In this document: positions 2,215 through 64,000 of the stretch, piece by piece
Position numbering within the stretch: the first letter of the stretch is position 1
How the letters are laid out: every line of letters starts with the position of its first letter
Source of the DNA: Chloroflexota bacterium
GTDB taxonomy: Bacteria > Chloroflexota > Anaerolineae > UBA2200
DNA length: 64,000 nucleotides
NCBI GenBank assembly: GCA_014360755.1
Contig: JACIWX010000006.1
Coordinates: 27,748 to 91,747, forward strand
Direction of reading: 5' to 3'
Notes under the pieces: generated by a model
What the model was told of the DNA's origin: nothing
Seen by the model: the letters and a program-made list of their open reading frames with translations, nothing else
Databases searched by the model: none
Position numbers and translations under genes: made by a program

Positions 2215-4323
2215 TCATTGCCCATCTGCCAAGATGCGCACGGCGCCAAGGATGATTTCGGAACCGATCACTTGGCCTGCTTCGTCCACCACTGGCAGGC
2301 GTGGCAAGCCTTCGGGGGTATGGCGATAGAAACCCAGTTGCAGTTCGTACTCACCTGGAGGGAGCCAGGAGGGGATTTCGATGATGTGGCGGTCTTCGAT
2401 GATTTCTCCAGGACGCCAGGTGTTTGTCGGGCGTGTCTCGTTAGCGGGGATGCCATCGTGCTGAGTATGTGTTTCCCCCTGAGCGACGTGGGCGAAGATG
2501 GTGTACGATTCTTTGATAGGGCTATCGGTGCTCCAGTAGAGGGTCAATTGCATGGTCTCGCCATGGTGGAATGCAAGGCTGTTGACCCGCGCTTCACGCA
2601 GGGTGATGCCGCCCTGCCAGTGAAATGGGGCAGGCAGGGTCACTGCGTCGTTCCACACAAACTGGGCTCCTGGCGATAACTGGATGTGGCGCACGCCCAC
2701 GCCATGGAAGGCAGGCACAGGCAATTCTGTGCCTTGGCTGAGCAAGAGATTGGCGACGATGTGCTGTGGGTCTACTACGTAATCCTGCCAGAGGAGCAGC
2801 CATGCGCCACGCTTCCCAGCCATGATGGGTTGCAACTGGTCAATGAACTGCAGGGTGAGCCGGTGGTCCACGCGCAACAGGGGGTCATTGGGGATAGGGT
2901 AGCGTTCGCAGCCAGGGCAATAGTAATCAAAGATGGGGAACATGTGCCCGGAGATGAGCAGGACTGCTTCATCGGGTGCACGGTGCTCACGGATGTAGCC
3001 AACAGCGGCGCGAAAGTCCGGCCGGCGCAGGTCGGGATTGCAGAAGAGGTTATAATCGGCGTAGACGGAGGTTGCCAGGACAAAGCAGATGGCTATGAAT
3101 GCTGCCAATATGGATATGGGACGCAGTTTGCTACTTCTTTGCTTTGGCACTGAAGTGCCTACTACAAGCCGTTTGGGCACTGAAGTGCCTACTACAAACC
3201 GTTTGGGCACTGAGGTGCCTACAAACCGCGTGAGCGCTGAAGTGCTCGCTACAAACTGGCCCGCGGTTGATGTGAGCTGGACAAGGGCGGCGCTGATGAG
3301 CAGGAGGAAAGCGGGGGAGATGAGCATAGAATGGCGCGGGCTGATGCGCGGCTTGCGCGAGTACAGGAAGGCAATCAGGATAGCAGGTATCAGCAGGCAT
3401 ATCCAGAGAAAAGACAGCGGGGGGATGGTGTGGGATTTCCTACATGCCTGGACAAACTGTAATGCGCTCACGATGAGCAACGCGATATAGCCGAGGGTTA
3501 CATACCAGGAGAGGGGCTCCAGCACGGACTCGCCCACGCTGAGGCTGGTGAACACACGGTACAAAGCGAGCAGGAAGGGCATGGTGGCAGCCCAATAGCC
3601 GGTGTCATATAGGTAACGATTGATGAGGACAGCGCTCCACGGTGCGTAGCCCAGCGCCCAGACGATGAGTACGCTCACGGCTTCGCGCAGGTAGGCTGAC
3701 GGACGTCCAGCCATCCACCACCACACGCCGAAGTAAAGGGCATGCGCGACAAGGACGGGTAGCGCGAAGTAATGCACATAGGCAGCAGCGAGCGAGGTGA
3801 ACAGGTACGTTGCCCACCAGAGGATGCGCCTCTCCCGGGGGCAACGGGCATTGGTGATGCGCAGGAGCAGGTCACTGGAGAGGAGGACAAGGAATGTGGC
3901 GAGGGCGTACATGCGTGTTTCTCGGGAGTAATAGAGACCCAATGGCGAAAGAGTGGCAAGGAAGGTGGCGACAAGGCCGGTTGCCTCGCCTAAAACGTGC
4001 CTGCCTATAAGGTAGATGAGTGGCAATATAGCGATACCAAATAGGGCGGAGAAGGCGCGCACCGCGAAGGCGCTGTCGCCACAAAGGCGGATCCATAGGT
4101 GAAGCAGCAGGTAATAGAGAGGCGGGTGGACATCCTGAGCGGTCCAGGCGATCGCTTTCGCCCAAGATGCTTTTGCCAAAGCAATGCTAAAGCCCTCATC
4201 GTACCACAGGCTTTGGTCTGCCAGGTTGTAGAAACGCAGTATGGTAGCCCAAAGGATGACGGCGATGAACAGCAGACGACTAGCACGTGATTTTTCAAAA
4301 TATTCGATCGTGTGCATATCCAT
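2215..4323 (-). CDS. Family 39 glycosyltransferase (ArnT/PMT-like membrane mannosyltransferase) with a C-terminal soluble domain.
   Basis: 702-aa ORF. The N-terminus FYNLADQSLWYDEGFSIALAK...VHPPLYYLLLHLW is the GT39/GT83 signature. There are more than 10 predicted TM helices followed by a large hydrophilic C-terminal domain. Confidence 0.85.
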   Translation of the reverse strand: MDMHTIEYFEKSRASRLLFIAVILWATILRFYNLADQSLWYDEGFSIALAKASWAKAIAWTAQDVHPPLYYLLLHLWIRLCGDSAFAVRAFSALFGIAILPLIYLIGRHVLGEATGLVATFLATLSPLGLYYSRETRMYALATFLVLLSSDLLLRITNARCPRERRILWWATYLFTSLAAAYVHYFALPVLVAHALYFGVWWWMAGRPSAYLREAVSVLIVWALGYAPWSAVLINRYLYDTGYWAATMPFLLALYRVFTSLSVGESVLEPLSWYVTLGYIALLIVSALQFVQACRKSHTIPPLSFLWICLLIPAILIAFLYSRKPRISPRHSMLISPAFLLLISAALVQLTSTAGQFVASTSALTRFVGTSVPKRFVVGTSVPKRLVVGTSVPKQRSSKLRPISILAAFIAICFVLATSVYADYNLFCNPDLRRPDFRAAVGYIREHRAPDEAVLLISGHMFPIFDYYCPGCERYPIPNDPLLRVDHRLTLQFIDQLQPIMAGKRGAWLLLWQDYVVDPQHIVANLLLSQGTELPVPAFHGVGVRHIQLSPGAQFVWNDAVTLPAPFHWQGGITLREARVNSLAFHHGETMQLTLYWSTDSPIKESYTIFAHVAQGETHTQHDGIPANETRPTNTWRPGEIIEDRHIIEIPSWLPPGEYELQLGFYRHTPEGLPRLPVVDEAGQVIGSEIILGAVRILADGQ
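3148..3259. repeat. In-frame 30-bp tandem repeat inside the GT39 gene, about 3.5 copies, encoding the 10-aa repeat VGTSVPKR(F/L)V.
   Basis: tgaagtgcctactacaagccgtttgggcac (3151-3180) and tgaagtgcctactacaaaccgtttgggcac (3181-3210) are near-identical. Degenerate copies follow at 3211-3259. Confidence 0.7.
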
Positions 4324-4464
4324 ACGTTATGGCTAACGTTACAGTGTCATGGATGGCCATCAACGAATGTGGAACACGGATACTGGCGCAGTACATTCGT
4401 TGTCAATTCGCTGACGACTGGCTCACAGCAACTTGCCCCGGGTTAAACTACACTCGGTGCAGCA

Positions 4465-4596
4465 GGAGAGTGTTGAAAATCTTGTCACCCTGAGCGAAGC
4501 GAAGGGTCTTACGTAACTTTAGCCTATTTTCCCAAGTACTGCGAGATGCTTCACTCCGTTCAGCATGACATTGGAAGGGCTTTTTCAACACTCTCC
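4465..4596. repeat. Nested inverted-repeat element of about 132 bp, MITE-like or a structured-RNA candidate.
   Basis: Outer perfect 15-bp inverted repeat GGAGAGTGTTGAAAA (4465-4479) / TTTTCAACACTCTCC (4582-4596). Inner imperfect inverted repeat GTCACCCTGAGCGAAGCGAAGGGTC (4484-4508) versus GCTTCACTCCGTTCAGCATGAC (4548-4569). Confidence 0.4.
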
Positions 4597-6050: not shown

Positions 6051-6130
6051 ACGAGGGAGGGCGCGGAGAGTTGACTAATCGGGCAGCATGGGGTAAACTT
6101 GTGCAGCGCGAAATGGCAGACATCCCGTGT

Positions 6131-6190
6131 GTCACTCTGAGCGCAGCGAAGAGCCTGCCCTGAGTACAACGAAGGGGTCTCGCGTAACTT
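6131..6190. repeat. Second copy, with an internal duplication, of the motif GTCACYCTGAGCGMAGCGAAG..GGGTCTYRCGTAACTT that is also found at 4484-4520.
   Basis: gtcactctgagcgcagcgaag[agcctgccctgagtacaacgaag]gggtctcgcgtaactt versus gtcaccctgagcgaagcgaagggtcttacgtaactt at 4484-4518. Confidence 0.4.
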
Positions 6191-6257
6191 GGAGGGAACC
6201 TGTCTCAGCTACGAGGAGATTCTTCGTCGCTTCGCTCCTCAGAATGACAAGGAGAGG

Positions 6258-7502
6258 ATGCTGAGCCTAAACATACTGGGCAAGCGGAGGCGAAAAGGAG
6301 GCATCTTGCGAGTTCGAGCCATAATTGTGTCCCTGGCCATATTGGCGGTGGCCCTGTGGCTTTTGGTGGGCTGTAGCCACACGCCATTGGTTTATGATGT
6401 GCGCATTGAACCAGATGTCATCTCACCGAATGCAGATGGCGTAGCGGATGTCGCGCGCATCACGTACCACCTTTCACGTTATGCCCGCGTCTCGATGTAT
6501 TTCCTGGATGAACAAGGTGGAAAACACGATTTTCGCACGGATGTGCCAAGGCCAAAGGGTTCCTATGAGGCGTTGTTCAGCGGGGTAATCGGAAACCGCC
6601 TGCTGCCCGATGGGCATTATCAGTGTGTGCTAGAAGCCGTGGCGGATGACGGGGAGCGGGTTGCCGTGCAAACACCGCTGACCATCCAAGGCGGGGAGCC
6701 GAATTACATCGAGATCCGCAACTTGAATATCTATCCCACTACCTTTACCCCTAACCGCGATGGCATCAATGACCGTGTAACGATTGCCTACTATTTGACG
6801 AAAGAGGCAACTAGTGTGCAAGTCTATTTGCTCAGCGAGAAGGGGGATAAGTATCCCATCCCGGAAGACAAGATTCGACCCATGGGGCAGGCAGGCAATC
6901 ATGAGCACGATTACGAAGGCGGCGTTGATTTAGGCGCTACGCCGCCCCCAGACGGAACCTATACGGTGGTGGTGGAAGCGGAGGATGCGGTGGGCAACCG
7001 CGATGTGGCACGTGGGCAGTTGACGATCGTCAATGGTGGTGTGCCCCAGGTGGAGATCGTGAACCGTGCGGCGCAATGGTCGTCCACCGTAGTGCCGCTG
7101 GGTGGCACGCTCACCTTCACCTGTACGGTGCGCAACATTGGCAAGGTAGGAGTGCGCACGAAAGGGCCAGAGCCAGGCACGCTCTATACCACGAGCGAGA
7201 ATTTCAACAGCAAGGGGTTCTATGAAGAGCCTGGCATATTCCGCATCGGTTTGGACTATGAGGGCAATAGTTCCGGGCGCATTTATCCATTTCGCTGGCA
7301 GTTGGGCCGCGATGACGAGTTGACCGTAATTGATGGGCAGAAGTACCTCATGCCCGGTCAGACTGCTACCGTGGTAGGCCATATCCAGATTATTGACAAG
7401 CCGGTGAAGGTCGCCCCCTACTATTGGCTGGGCTTGATCCATGAGCAAGTGTGGATCGTCGAAGACCGTGTGGAGCCCGTGCCTATCACCATCGGATTCT
7501 GA
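6258..7502 (+). CDS. Lipoprotein with tandem FlgD-Ig-like domains.
   Basis: The N-terminus is KRRRK followed by a hydrophobic stretch and the lipobox LLVGC. Repeated motifs ISPNADGVADVARITYHLS and TFTPNRDGINDRVTIAYYLT match the FlgD immunoglobulin-like fold. An alternative start is TTG at 6306, after AAAGGAGG. Confidence 0.75.
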   Translation: MLSLNILGKRRRKGGILRVRAIIVSLAILAVALWLLVGCSHTPLVYDVRIEPDVISPNADGVADVARITYHLSRYARVSMYFLDEQGGKHDFRTDVPRPKGSYEALFSGVIGNRLLPDGHYQCVLEAVADDGERVAVQTPLTIQGGEPNYIEIRNLNIYPTTFTPNRDGINDRVTIAYYLTKEATSVQVYLLSEKGDKYPIPEDKIRPMGQAGNHEHDYEGGVDLGATPPPDGTYTVVVEAEDAVGNRDVARGQLTIVNGGVPQVEIVNRAAQWSSTVVPLGGTLTFTCTVRNIGKVGVRTKGPEPGTLYTTSENFNSKGFYEEPGIFRIGLDYEGNSSGRIYPFRWQLGRDDELTVIDGQKYLMPGQTATVVGHIQIIDKPVKVAPYYWLGLIHEQVWIVEDRVEPVPITIGF

Positions 7503-8440
7503 TGGATCTCTCTGTTATTATCGTCAGTTGGAACGTCAAAGGATTGCTGGCTGAGTGCCTGGCTTCTGTCTATGACGCTTTGGGCAGGAGCCATTTTGCC
7601 TGCGAAATATTGGTTGTGGACAATGCTTCCTCCGATGGCAGCCCTGAGATGGTGCGCGAGCGTTTCCCGCAGGTTTCGCTCTTGGCGAATGCTGAGAACA
7701 GGGGTTTTGCCGCTGCCAATAACCAAGCCATGGCACTAGCACAAGGTCGCCTGGTGCTGTTATTGAACCCGGACACCGTGGTGCGCCGCGACGCTTTGGA
7801 CATACTAGTGCGCTTTATGGATGAGACCCCCACAGCTGGCATGGCTGGTCCGCGCTTGGTCTACCCCGATGGGCGTTTCCAACACGCGGCATTTCGTTTC
7901 CCTACGCTGGCGCAGGCTTTCTTTGATTTCTTCCCCGTGCATTACCGGCTGTTGGAATCACCATTGAACGGGCGCTACTCGCCTTCCCTGTATGCTGCCG
8001 GGCGTCCCTTTGTTATAGACCATCCTTTAGGGGCGTGCATGATGGTCCGGCGGCAGGCGATTGACGAGGTAGGGGGCATGGACGAGGGCTTTTTCATGTA
8101 CTGCGAAGAAATAGACTGGGCAATGCGCCTGAAACGCGCTGGATGGGGAATTTACTGTGTGCCAGCGGCGGAGGTGGTGCACTATGCTGGGCAGAGCACA
8201 CAGCAATTCCGCGAGGAAATGTTCGTTGCCCTGTGGCGCAGCCGCTTTCGCCTCTATGCCAAGCACTACGGACGGTTCGATAACTGGATGTTGCGTCGCG
8301 TGGTGCGTTTGGGTTTGTGGCAGGAGAGGCGGAGGGCGCAACGTCAGGCTGAGACAGGCGTGATTTCACAGGAGGATCTGGCTCGCCGCATGGCAGCCTA
8401 TCAGCGTGTAGAGGAGATGACGGATAGCAGTGTGTGGTAG
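7502..8440 (+). CDS. Family 2 glycosyltransferase.
   Basis: MDLSVIIVSWNVKGLLAECL...VVDNASSDGS, a GT-A fold signature. The ATG overlaps the upstream stop as TGATG. Confidence 0.85.
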   Translation: MDLSVIIVSWNVKGLLAECLASVYDALGRSHFACEILVVDNASSDGSPEMVRERFPQVSLLANAENRGFAAANNQAMALAQGRLVLLLNPDTVVRRDALDILVRFMDETPTAGMAGPRLVYPDGRFQHAAFRFPTLAQAFFDFFPVHYRLLESPLNGRYSPSLYAAGRPFVIDHPLGACMMVRRQAIDEVGGMDEGFFMYCEEIDWAMRLKRAGWGIYCVPAAEVVHYAGQSTQQFREEMFVALWRSRFRLYAKHYGRFDNWMLRRVVRLGLWQERRRAQRQAETGVISQEDLARRMAAYQRVEEMTDSSVW

Positions 8441-19019: not shown

Positions 19020-19792
19020 TGCGTATCCTGGTGATTACCCAAGGTGAATATGGCAAGCGCATGGTGCAGAATTTGCGTGCCCATGCGCCACCAGGATGGG
19101 TGATCGAAGAATGGCTAGCACCGGAGAATTTGCCTCTGGTGATGGATTATCCAGAGGAATATATCCCCGATGTATTGCCACCAGTGGATTTGATCCTTTC
19201 TTTGGGCGAGAACCCGGGTGTGGCTGAGCTCATTCCTGAGATAGCGAAACGCACCGGCGCCCGTGCTGCCATTGTCCCCATTGACCGCAAGGAATGGATG
19301 CCCAAAGGACTGGCACGGCAGTTAGGGCATTGGCTGGAGGACATTGGTGTGACAGCCGTTTTCCCCAAGCCGCTCTGTTCACTAACCGAGACACATTACA
19401 ATGTAGGGCGACACCGTGTGGAATACCATCATGACCTCGTTGCAGAATTCGCCCGTTTCTTTGGCCGTCCTCGCTTTATCCTCACCGTAGATCCATCCAG
19501 CAAGGCTATTGTCGAAGCAAAGGTAGAACGCGATGCGGTGTGTGGCTGCGCACGCCATGTTGCGGCGGGATTGGTTGGAGTGAACGTAGATGAAGCTGAA
19601 TTCCAGGCTGGCATGCTCCATCACCATTATCCCTGTTTAGCGGCGATGGGCATTGATGAGGATTTCGCCGATACCCTGATGCATGTTTCAGGCAATATCG
19701 CGAAAGAGGAAGTGAAAGCACAAATCAAGCCGTATCTTACCATCCAGTACTTTGTGCCACATGGCCGTGTGGAGGAGGGAAGTGATGAGTGA
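19019..19792 (+). CDS. Uncharacterised Cys-rich protein that abuts the upstream protease gene (1-nt TAATG junction), possibly DUF166/COG1810-like.
   Basis: 257-aa ORF starting at a TAATG overlap with the protease stop. It contains CGCARH and HHHYPC motifs. The family assignment is from memory only. Confidence 0.55.
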   Translation: MRILVITQGEYGKRMVQNLRAHAPPGWVIEEWLAPENLPLVMDYPEEYIPDVLPPVDLILSLGENPGVAELIPEIAKRTGARAAIVPIDRKEWMPKGLARQLGHWLEDIGVTAVFPKPLCSLTETHYNVGRHRVEYHHDLVAEFARFFGRPRFILTVDPSSKAIVEAKVERDAVCGCARHVAAGLVGVNVDEAEFQAGMLHHHYPCLAAMGIDEDFADTLMHVSGNIAKEEVKAQIKPYLTIQYFVPHGRVEEGSDE

Positions 19793-19806
19793 TGAGTGAT
19801 GAGTGG
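19781..19806. repeat. Heptanucleotide microsatellite (AGTGATG) of about 3.5 copies at the junction of two convergent gene ends.
   Basis: agtgatgagtgatgagtgatgagtgg. It supplies TGA stops in all three plus-strand frames for the upstream gene and abuts the TAA stop of the minus-strand DedA-like gene. Confidence 0.6.
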
Positions 19807-58465: not shown

Positions 58466-58521
58466 CGTATTACGTATTACGTATTACGTATTACGTATTA
58501 CGTATTACGTATTACGTATTG
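58466..58521. repeat. Heptanucleotide microsatellite (CGTATTA) of 7 perfect copies plus 1 variant, in a divergent promoter region.
   Basis: cgtatta repeated from 58466 to 58514, then cgtattg. It sits 18-75 nt upstream of the nitroreductase ATG and about 130-185 nt upstream of the metY-like ATG. Confidence 0.8.
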
Positions 58522-58649
58522 CGTGTTTCGTGATATGCCTTGTGACTTCATTTTACCCAGGAATTCCGGTAGAGGGAAGGCTTTGCTTTTCTATGATATT
58601 GCGCTATACTATGGGCTAGCAATGTCAACTACTTGCCAGGAGGTAACCG

Positions 58650-62114: not shown

Positions 62115-63422
62115 TCAGCGGATAATTTGGCGGATCAACGGCGCGGGCTTTACCGGAGCATCGCTCCACGTGTAGGCAGCCAATAACTGTTCCCGCGCTT
62201 CAGCCAATCTGCTCTCGTCATTGGCATGGATGACAAGCAGTGGTTCGCCTTTCTCCACGCGGTCGCCTACCTTCTTCTTCAGCACAACCCCCACCGCACG
62301 GTCAATTTCTTCGCCTTTCCTCTGGCGCCCGGCGCCGAGGGCAACCGTAGCCAAACCGACCTTCATCGCATCGAGCGTGGCAACATAGCCGCTTTGCGGC
62401 GAAGGCAAGTCCTGCACCAAGCGCGCCTGCGGCATGAGTCCGGTGTTCTCCACAACGTGGTCATCGCCGCCTTGCGCACGCACCCATTCGCGGAACTTGG
62501 CGATAGCCCGCCCAGAAGCGATCGCCTCTCTCAGCAATGCCTTGCCTGCTTCTGCATGGGGACACTTTTCAGCCAGAAGGAGCATCTCTGCCGCAACAAC
62601 CAGGCAATGCTCGGTGAAATCTGCTGGGCCTCTGCCCTGCAAAGTGGCAATGGCTTCGGCAACTTCCAGCGCATTCCCTACGGCGTAGCCCAAGGGCTGC
62701 TCCATATCGGAGATGACAGCCGCCATGCGCCGCCCTGCCCCACGGCCAATCTTGACCATGGTTTCAGCCAAGGCAATCGCTTCCTGCTCTGTTTTCATGA
62801 AGGCTCCTCTGCCCGTCTTGACATCCAGCACAATGGCCGTAGCGCCAGCAGCGATTTTCTTGCTCATGACCGAACTGGCAATCAGGGGCAGGCTCTCTAC
62901 CGTTGCCGTAACATCGCGCAAGGCATACATTTTGCCATCCGCCGGCGCGAGGTCTGCGGACTGCCCTGCCACGACAATGCCGTGATCCCTCAATAGATCC
63001 ATAAACTGCTGGCGAGTCCAGTTCACATTGAACCCCGGAATGGATTCCAGTTTGTCCAGCGTGCCACCGGAGAAGCCCAAGCCACGCCCAGACATCTTGC
63101 CCACCGGCAACCCCAGGCTGGCGACCAGCGGCGCCACGACCAGCGTGGTCTTGTCCCCTACCCCACCCGTCGAGTGCTTGTCCAGGACGAGAGGAGCAAT
63201 GGCGGACAGGTCAAGCACATCTCCAGAATGAGCCATGGCCAGGGTTAGATCCACCGTCTCCCGCTCTGTCATGCCCCGCCAGACAATAGCCATCATCCAA
63301 GCCGACATCTGGTAGTCCGGGATGTCACCGCGCGTAAAGCCCCATACCATGAACTCAATCTCTTCTTTGGACAACTCAGCGCCATCGCGTTTCTTTCTTA
63401 TTATGTCAACCGCACGCATCAT
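62115..63422 (-). CDS. pdp: Pyrimidine-nucleoside (thymidine) phosphorylase.
   Basis: [17 protein letters not shown]..., [19 protein letters not shown] and the C-terminal alpha/beta domain. Confidence 0.9.
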
Positions 63423-63690
63423 TGGGTTTGCTCCTTTCGCACTGTAAACGTTTCTAACATAATCATAACACATCAGAGCGAAAACGCAAACCTCCGGATG
63501 GTTTCACCACAGAACGCACAGAGGACACAGAGGGGCCAGTTTTTGGAGAGAGTTGCACCCAAGGCCGAGCACTGTCAACGGATGCAGGGAGCGGATGACA
63601 CGGATTTACCTTTGAGGTAGCATCCCTCACGAGTGCCTGCCCATCCGTTCAATCCGATCCAGAAATCCGCTGACAGGCGCACTCCAACAA

Positions 63691-63870
63691 AGAGTGATTC
63701 AAGGGTTAACGCCCTTCCTCTCAAAAAGAGTTTGTAGTGAGCGCTTCAGCGCTCATCACTAATAGAGAATGATTCAGGGGTTAACGTCCTTCCTCTCAAA
63801 AAGAGTTTGTAGTGAGCGCTTTAGCGCTCATGACTAACAGAGAGTAATTCAGGGGTTAACATCCTTCCTC
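63691..63870. repeat. 73-bp tandem repeat of about 2.4 units, each carrying two hairpins.
   Basis: Units start near 63691, 63764 and 63838 (partial). Each contains AGGGGTTAACGYCCTTCCTCT and the hairpin GTGAGCGCT-tyA-GCGCTCAT. The last partial unit overlaps the stop codon of the partial minus-strand gene at the right edge. Confidence 0.7.
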
Positions 63871-64000
63871 TTCCAGCAAGGCTTTGGCACGGGCAATTTG
63901 GAGGCGTACAGCGGCCGGCGCAGTGCCGCCGAGGACATTGCGCCGCTCCACGGCGCGATGGTAGTCAAAGACAGCGTAGAGGTCTTCCGCAAAAGCAGGA
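63856..64000 (-). CDS. C-terminal end of an unidentified gene. The 5' part lies beyond the window.
   Basis: The reverse strand reads ...PAFAEDLYAVFDYHRAVERRNVLGGTAPAAVRLQIARAKALLEEEGC* with a TAA at 63856-63858. It is stop-free to the window end. No family recognised. Confidence 0.35.
   Translation of the reverse strand, partial: PAFAEDLYAVFDYHRAVERRNVLGGTAPAAVRLQIARAKALLEEEGC

Follow-up and report, generated by a model that had tools for sequence, protein, structure and literature searches.

Directly behind argH in a Chloroflexota genome lies a short tandem array of hairpins, and every unit of it also repeats the last codons of the gene. How did a gene end come to be repeated together with a hairpin, and does the array serve the operon? 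We followed this question from a 64-kb stretch of DNA (the window), which ends inside argH.

Array of gene-end copies and hairpins

Tandem Repeats Finder placed the array at 63686-63871 (period 75, 2.5 copies, 90% matches, score 309). The tandem repeat reported by the initial annotation is real, with 2.5 units in this interval, and its period is 75 nt, not 73. By repeat search, it resolved into two full units of 75 nt at 63686-63760 and 63761-63835, which are 91% identical and differ at 7 of the 75 positions, and a partial unit of 36 nt at 63836-63871. A full unit consists of module A (36 nt) and module B (39 nt). Module A occurs three times and module B twice, in the order native flank - A1 - B1 - A2 - B2 - A3 - argH (Table 1).

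Module A, AACAGAGAGTRATTCARGGGTTAACRYCCTTCCTCT, contains the last four codons of argH, the stop codon and 20 nt downstream of it. Module B, CAAAAAGA-GTTTGTAG-TGAGCGC-TTYA-GCGCTCA-TSACT, is a palindrome headed by GTAG. The 8-bp stem described initially corresponds to two reverse-complementary arms of 8 nt (TGAGCGCT and AGCGCTCA), but in practice they form a 7-bp stem with a 4-nt loop, extended by imperfect arms of 15-16 nt with 80-81% complementarity. The A copies differ from each other at 4-5 of 36 positions and B1 from B2 at 2 of 39. An exact repeat of 34 nt inside the array is common to both units.

Within the window, the A and B motifs were confined to the array, with the exception of a related hairpin cluster at 3146-3256, and none were expected from shuffled sequences. 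The complete 75-nt unit was found at the argH locus alone, in the window as well as in a scan of JGI metagenomes. Module A was not dispersed either, with one site in the window and one contig in the JGI scan.

The gene at the window edge is argH, coding for argininosuccinate lyase. Its 458-aa orthologue matched Pfam Lyase_1 and ASL_C2, and the C-terminus of the window ArgH is identical in the proteins P0121 (NCBI MBC7233493.1) and P0122. A protein search with the 47-aa ArgH fragment of the window gave no match; the orthologues were reached by scanning metagenomes with the module-A DNA pattern, and then with the full ArgH of the relative found in this way. The genes argG, argH and pdp follow each other in this order on one strand. 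The argH product ends in ...ARAKALLEEEGC*, with the TAA stop lying within the GTTAAC of the third A copy. The last partial unit had been said to supply the codons LLEEEGC and the stop. It does supply the stop and E-E-G-C, whereas the two Leu codons lie outside the repeat: the repeated coding part comprises the TAA, four codons and one further nucleotide. Because the A copy nearest the gene is intact, argH retains its normal end.

Table 1 Features of the array, its neighbouring genes and the second hairpin cluster (positions in the window; differences are to the single A copy of the closest relative).
Feature	Position	Strand	Description	Differences
Second REP cluster, GTTTGTAG family	3146..3256	-	four head-to-tail units inside ORF 2215-4323 (-)	
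pdp (pyrimidine-nucleoside phosphorylase)	62115..63422	-	next gene downstream of argH; Pfam Glycos_trans_3N, Glycos_transf_3, PYNP_C	
Module A1	63686..63721	-	non-coding copy of the argH end, pseudo-tail ..EEGR* and 20 nt native downstream sequence; adjoins native intergenic DNA	5/36; ancestral CGT codon kept
Module B1, REP	63722..63760	+	24-nt core GTTTGTAGTGAGCGCTTCAGCGCT at 63730-63753; imperfect palindrome arms 63731-63745 and 63748-63762, without counterpart in relatives	
Module A2	63761..63796	-	second non-coding copy of the argH end	4/36; CGT codon kept
Module B2, REP	63797..63835	+	core 63805-63828, loop TTTA; arms 63805-63820 and 63823-63838	
Module A3, functional copy	63836..63871	-	last four argH codons, TAA 63856-63858, 20 nt downstream	2/36; Arg codon to Cys (TGT)
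argH 3' end (argininosuccinate lyase)	63856..64000	-	continues past the window edge	

Empty sites in relatives

The sole contig matched by the module-A pattern in the JGI metagenome scan, Ga0315298_1002944, belongs to a close relative; over 4.4 kb, its nucleotide identity with the window is 94.6%. Its sequence at the orthologous site, ...GTACTCC, AACAGAGGGTAATTCAGGGGTTAACGTCCTTCCTCT, TCCAACAGGGC..., has one A and no B, and its ArgH ends in ...EEEGR*. The pairwise alignment with the window has a clean gap of 150 nt at the array. An identical empty site was present on an ENA contig (ERZ27247713 k141_566414) and on a Logan contig, both encoding an ArgH identical to that of the relative. In an outgroup (locus L133; GCA_014360885.1, JACIWS010000427.1), whose ArgH is 85% identical, the stop codon and the DNA following it are homologous (TAAACCCCTGCATCC...GTACACCTGTCAGCGGATTT...), and the hairpin is absent.

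The non-coding copies A1 and A2 keep the ancestral CGT (Arg), and the functional A3 has TGT (Cys). Judged from these alignments, the empty site is ancestral, module A corresponds to the native end of the gene together with 20 nt of its spacer, and the window lineage has gained two units of B + A. With the site empty in both the relative and the outgroup, the additional 150 bp of the window are therefore a derived insertion and not a conserved device. The insertion is not brand new, in view of the differences among the A copies (4-5 of 36 positions) and between the B copies (2 of 39), compared with ~12% divergence between window and relative in the spacer adjoining the array.

These comparisons also bear on what the initial annotation had proposed about the origin of the repeat. 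It had seen the gene's 3' end duplicated with its own downstream hairpin; gene end and hairpin are indeed repeated together, but two independent relatives are without the hairpin, which is not native to the gene. The alternative it offered, an element inserted into the stop codon, does not fit either, as the stop and the tail codons are native and were duplicated, and the REP begins 17-25 nt downstream of the stop.

The spacer between argH and pdp holds a second insertion polymorphism, in the opposite direction. A MITE-like element of ~130-156 bp, with the terminal inverted repeats GAGAGTGTTGAAAA...TTTTCAACACTCTC, occurs at 4463-4595 and 6130-6190 of the window and at 4426-4581 and 6247-6380 of locus L122. 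One copy lies between argH and pdp in the relative, flanked by the direct repeat CTCCGTAGGTT, and there the window is empty (ATCCGGAGGTT). Upstream of pdp, the motif CCTCTGTG..CTC[TC]G[TC]GGTGAAA was found in the window (~63500-63535, plus strand) and in the relative. The loci concerned outside the window are L132, with two occurrences, L134, with a diverged form, and L129. The motif may represent a conserved leader sequence or one more small repeat.

Module B belongs to a dispersed GTAG-REP family

A degenerate 24-mer from the window, GTTTGTAGNNRGCRCYTYAGYGCY, was scanned against one genome per GTDB species. It matched at least 118 stretches, compared with ~4 expected by chance, as we estimate for a pattern with 16 fixed positions and 6 two-fold ones and for 1.2e12 sites. 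Nearly all of the matches listed were from Nostocales, Coleofasciculus, Hormoscilla and other filamentous cyanobacteria, from Chloroflexota (Anaerolineae, Caldilineaceae and Thermoflexus among the matches listed) and from Ca. Parabeggiatoa. The hairpin taken initially for the gene's own is a member of this dispersed GTAG-REP family. The pattern imposed no complementarity on the stem. Among the matches listed, 119 of 133 non-redundant ones were nevertheless Watson-Crick paired at both free stem positions, with all four Watson-Crick combinations present; this covariation is supportive and not a formal test, because the copies are related.

Three forms of the family were recognized: single long palindromes (GTTTGTAGTAAGCAC-TTTA-GTGCTTACTACAAAC); inverted doublets with unlike inner stems, seen in cyanobacterial loci; and head-to-tail arrays, present in many genomes, with periods of 24, 27, 29, 30, 57, 60, 63, 81, 84 and 101. 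Long arrays of the bare 24-nt REP core, head to tail, were found in the Hormoscilla and Ca. Parabeggiatoa loci L085, L093, L119 and L084, with array-specific spacers of 0-6 nt, periods of 24, 27, 29 and 30 and up to 9.9 copies.

Module B has several features of a REP. It is a short imperfect palindrome in the 20-40 nt range that forms a stem-loop, both of its copies are extragenic, in the argH-pdp spacer, and a GT[AG]G head precedes the stem, in the form of GTTTGTAG, in B1, B2 and every family match listed. B1 and B2 do not make up a REPIN or BIME, whose replicating unit is a pair of inverted REPs that form a single long hairpin, being in direct orientation and 75 nt apart. MITEs and classical transposons have terminal inverted repeats and a short target-site duplication with a fixed length; B is palindromic and flanked by direct copies of A, the duplication of 33-36 bp is far longer than usual target-site duplications, and the site carries two rounds of it. 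A literal search of the literature for the sequence of the element returned chance matches only. The Nostoc punctiforme REP of Bertels & Rainey was considered as the same element and rejected, as its sequence is different.

Six copies of the family are present in the 64-kb window, at two sites. At the second site, 3146-3256, Tandem Repeats Finder gave a period of 30 and 3.8 copies, the first two units being exactly 30 nt long. Three of the four units carry GTTTGTAG; the fourth has GCTTGTAG, in which the GTAG head is kept. This cluster indicates that the REP family is multi-copy in the source genome. The surrounding ORF encodes a 702-aa membrane protein of the PMT_2/GT39 type, in which the cluster lies in frame and contributes FVASTSALTR-FVGTSVPKR-FVVGTSVPKR-LVVGTSVPKQ at residues ~356-392. 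The same 702-aa product was called on three independent Logan contigs, and a search through an identical 70-aa protein neighbouring the PMT_2 gene retrieved window-type contigs only.

The window also contains heptamer runs. CGTATTA is repeated 8.4 times at 58466-58531, where it immediately precedes the ribosome-binding site and the start of a minus-strand gene for a PLP enzyme, and AGTGATG 3.6 times at 19781-19805. The relative (95% identical) has only ~5 degenerate CGTATTA units, the copy number being variable. Arrays of heptamers are characteristic of heterocystous cyanobacteria and Beggiatoaceae, which are lineages that also have the module-B REP family. The small dispersed repeats (SDR) of heterocystous cyanobacteria, reportedly described by Elhai and colleagues in 2008, are said to be 21-27 nt long, with a conserved secondary structure, and to be nested and in tandem; the Nostoc genomes bearing them are said to have heptamer repeats as well. 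Going by this description, the 24-nt core, the nesting within the family and the heptamer arrays of the window resemble SDRs, and we take the likeness as a lead.

RAYT genes associated with the family

A motif search of all retrieved DNA for RAYT ORFs found PNHYHLL in three loci, one each from Anaerolineae (L030), Nostoc (L061) and Ca. Parabeggiatoa (L093). On both sides of each of these ORFs there were REPs of the module-B family. Three genomes other than that of the window have thus the arrangement of a REPtron, a RAYT gene flanked by the same REPs. The proteins from Anaerolineae and Nostoc matched the NCBIfam model of REP-associated tyrosine transposases, NF047646, with 83 and 82.4 bits, respectively (cut-off 80), and the one from Ca. 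Parabeggiatoa, for which the Pfam scan alone was used, matched Y1_Tnp with 23.6 bits (cut-off 23). The RAYTs carry NHYH, WY and YIHYNP motifs and a proline-rich N-terminus with GYPPHSPPH, and have a length of ~198 aa.

A protein search with the Anaerolineae RAYT gave 1256 relatives, including P0191 (MBC7233916.1) from a Chloroflexi MAG. Its accession comes 423 numbers after that of the window ArgH, MBC7233493.1. P0191 is 198 aa long, scored 92.5 bits against NF047646 (cut-off 80) and contains NHYH, WYR, YIHYNP and GYPPHSPPH. It thereby agrees with the definition of TnpA_REP subclass 2.8, which has NHYH, W[YH], YIHYNP, a proline-rich N-terminus and ~199 aa (PMC6006769). From the adjacency of the accessions, the MAG of the window itself very probably encodes this RAYT, the putative cognate of module B. 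Identity among the four RAYTs, which come from three phyla, is 58-68%.

Long canonical REPs with a 5' GT[AG]G are described as flanking the genes of subclass 2.8, for which the sampling was in cyanobacteria and relatives were noted in other phyla (Quentin et al. 2018, PMC6006769). The RAYTs found here resemble these REPtrons in their NHYH, W[YH] and YIHYNP motifs, their proline-rich N-terminus and their length of ~198 aa, as well as in having REPs of this type (long, canonical, 5' GT[AG]G) on either side. They go beyond that sampling, which covered Cyanobacteria only, in that the RAYT-REP pair occurs also in Anaerolineae and Ca. Parabeggiatoa.

Two of the RAYT loci have peculiarities of their own. 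In Anaerolineae (L030, 1120-1827), the RAYT frame is lengthened at both ends by REP-encoded GAEAPTTN peptides. In Ca. Parabeggiatoa (L093), the RAYT, on the minus strand at nt 6391-7560 of that strand, has a C-terminal fusion to a Uma2 domain (Pfam E = 1.6e-13), a putative restriction endonuclease, and bare-core arrays at 233-401 and 1818-1901 lie on opposite sides of the gene.

Folding and possible function

The two B copies were folded on the mRNA strand, as the initial annotation had suggested, and gave stable hairpins of -14.4 and -15.4 kcal/mol (z about -3). The empty site of the relative was unstructured (z +1.75). Behind the argH stop, the extended stem begins after 17 nt and the core stem after 25 nt, and UCUUUUUG comes after the extended stem. 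In having a GC-rich hairpin soon after the stop, on the transcribed strand and with a T-run nearby, the site resembles Rho-independent terminators and the REP stabilisers of E. coli. It differs from Rho-independent terminators in the position of the T-run. A consensus terminator scan of 63300-64000 called neither hairpin, because 9 nt separate the core stem from the T5 run; this run lies directly after the imperfect extended stem, whereas intrinsic terminators have a T-rich run 0-2 nt after a GC-rich stem. Rfam 15 recognized no family, its sole hit being a chance match of 13.7 bits to a Brucella sRNA (gathering score 241).

If they acted like the REPs of E. coli, the hairpins on the argH transcript could delay its decay by 3' exonucleases or attenuate part of the read-through into pdp. 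E. coli REPs have roles as terminators, mRNA stabilisers or protein-binding sites (background in PMC3333891, PMC3733652). Since close relatives lack it, the array does not belong to the conserved features of the operon, and any stabilising or attenuating effect would in our view be a recent by-product of selfish spread, not the reason for the array. Riboswitch and attenuator readings of the array were also considered, and rejected.

Origin of the array

We consider it highly likely that the array is a REP cluster, in which a mobile module B, from a REP population maintained by a RAYT, was amplified in place together with the native module A. Such a cluster is selfish DNA of an ordinary sort, not a novel regulatory device, and tandem clusters of REPs with their flanks are already known. 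Several other origins were weighed against this one. The closest to the initial annotation, a local tandem duplication by slippage of the gene's 3' end and its own terminator hairpin, with no mobile element, agrees with the native gene-end sequence in the unit, the collinearity of the three A copies and the restriction of the whole unit to the argH locus. It is very unlikely all the same, since neither the relative nor the outgroup has a counterpart of the 39-nt hairpin part, while the rest of their downstream DNA shows base-for-base homology, and since this hairpin matches a RAYT-associated REP family of many genomes. That both the relative (95% identical) and the outgroup lack the array also weighs against an array selected as a multi-hairpin terminator, as a stabiliser of the argG-argH mRNA 3' end or as a gyrase/IHF-type binding array between argH and pdp, and so do the terminator scan, which called neither hairpin, and the lack of an Rfam match. 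Such roles are known for E. coli REPs (PMC3333891, PMC3733652), and in their favour each B is stable on the mRNA strand, where the empty site is unstructured, and the extended stem is followed by the T-run. Moreover, the B2-A3 junction was identical on six of six independent Logan contigs examined, from different runs, and A1 has two changes of its own by which two G-T pairs in a small hairpin inside A become Watson-Crick pairs. On balance, selection for such a role is improbable. The functional array of the initial annotation thus fared poorly on its own terms: it had named a unit unique to this locus and absent or variable in close relatives as the outcome that would speak for a simple recent duplication, and the 75-nt unit is unique to the locus and absent from close relatives.

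The array could also be an artefact, the 2.5 copies being an assembler's expansion of a single REP insertion. All short-read Logan contigs end inside the array, at ~63742 and ~63792, so that its middle (63743-63791), and hence the copy number of two, comes from one assembly only. The six argH-side contigs examined each end 64 nt past the stop codon, and those from the pdp side end at 63742. However, the 7 differences between the units over 75 positions speak against the collapse or expansion of a copy, and a k=31 graph breaks on both sides at a true internal repeat of 34 nt, at which a single unit would not branch. The outer junctions, flank-A1-B and B2-A3-argH, were confirmed by independent contigs, and we hold an artefact to be most unlikely. 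The contig ends at ~63742 had also been considered as a sign of dispersed copies, and this was rejected, as the exact 34-nt repeat between the units explains the breaks. A miniature CRISPR-like or other spacer-acquiring array, to which the palindromic direct repeats and their regular spacing might point, is scarcely conceivable. CRISPR arrays have at least three repeats with unrelated spacers, whereas here there are two repeats only, and the "spacers" copy each other and the adjacent gene end; the region had no Rfam CRISPR match, and the repeat is GTAG-headed and flanks RAYT genes elsewhere.

For the REP cluster, the following course may be envisaged. Module B would have come from the genome's own REP population, which a RAYT of TnpA_REP subclass 2.8 would maintain. 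The unit may then have been amplified in place by the RAYT through nicking, extension and rejoining, as proposed for the BIME arrays of E. coli, or else by replication slippage or unequal exchange between A copies. The TnpA_REP of E. coli cleaves at CT dinucleotides in the vicinity of REPs and is able to build tandem copies by strand transfer; in the proposed amplification model it nicks, the 3'-OH is extended, and the enzyme cleaves again and rejoins (PMC3333891).

One step is not explained by these processes. The order A-B-A-B-A cannot have come from one clean insertion followed by duplication, because all such paths put a B beside the native flank or the gene. The first event must have been either the duplication of a 33-36 bp target on either side of the REP, or the landing of a REP exactly on an earlier A-A joint. 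Known transposition of the Y1 type (IS200/IS605) proceeds without target duplication (PMC3333891), and for this reason standard Y1 transposition does not account for the order. The junctions follow ...CCTCT and ...ACT, with an AAC microhomology shared with the degenerate REP tail. We do not count the CT at the junctions as evidence, given how frequent this dinucleotide is. Neither a transposition intermediate nor a donor copy was observed.

Comparison with known REP clusters

Di Nocera et al. 2013 (PMC3733652), with 24 numbered GTAG families, described clusters of GTAG-type REPs that are tandemly repeated along with their flanks. Tandem REPIN clusters that are ordered and include flanks are known from P. 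fluorescens SBW25 (Bertels & Rainey 2011, PMC3116915), and tandem BIME-2 arrays from E. coli (Ton-Hoang et al. 2012, PMC3333891). The argH element resembles the GTAG-REP clusters in being a short palindrome, with GTAG as its 5' head, that lies downstream of a gene and between two co-directional genes, and its unit in being a REP with a constant local flank, arranged head to tail and present or absent among relatives. Unlike most elements of the GTAG-REP survey (PMC3733652), its units are single REPs in direct orientation, which are rare there, and not inverted doublets. It differs from the known clusters further in that the repeated flank holds coding sequence and a stop codon, and that the host belongs to the Chloroflexota.

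Units inside ORFs have been reported for Rickettsia palindromic elements and intragenic REPs (PMC3733652). The cluster at 3146-3256 is similar to these, with its REP units inside an ORF that stays open. The family is a different one, though, and the element at the argH site is extragenic, only its duplicated flank being derived from coding sequence.

Implications

For annotation, the repeated ..EEGR* copies of the gene end are pseudo-ends and not extra small ORFs, and short-read assemblies break at arrays of this kind. The locus provides a clean pair of filled and empty sites, with a gain of 150 bp whose ancestral state is fixed by an outgroup. As the spread of REPs is still poorly understood, matched filled and empty sites are useful raw material. 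A well-conserved RAYT-REP pair is common to filamentous cyanobacteria, Anaerolineae-type Chloroflexota and Ca. Parabeggiatoa, and its distribution across phyla adds to the evidence of gene exchange among those lineages.

It is possible, though unlikely, that the locus preserves a REP integration that duplicated 33-36 bp on both sides, with the empty site still present in relatives. If true for RAYTs of subclass 2.8, REPs would be disseminated replicatively, in a way distinct from the peel-and-paste transposition of IS200/IS605. The steps would be a nick at a CT site, extension of the 3'-OH through the target, a second cleavage, and joining of the REP strand between the old and the new copies. 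Such a process would explain the frequent REP-plus-flank arrays of this family in Chloroflexota, cyanobacteria and Beggiatoaceae.
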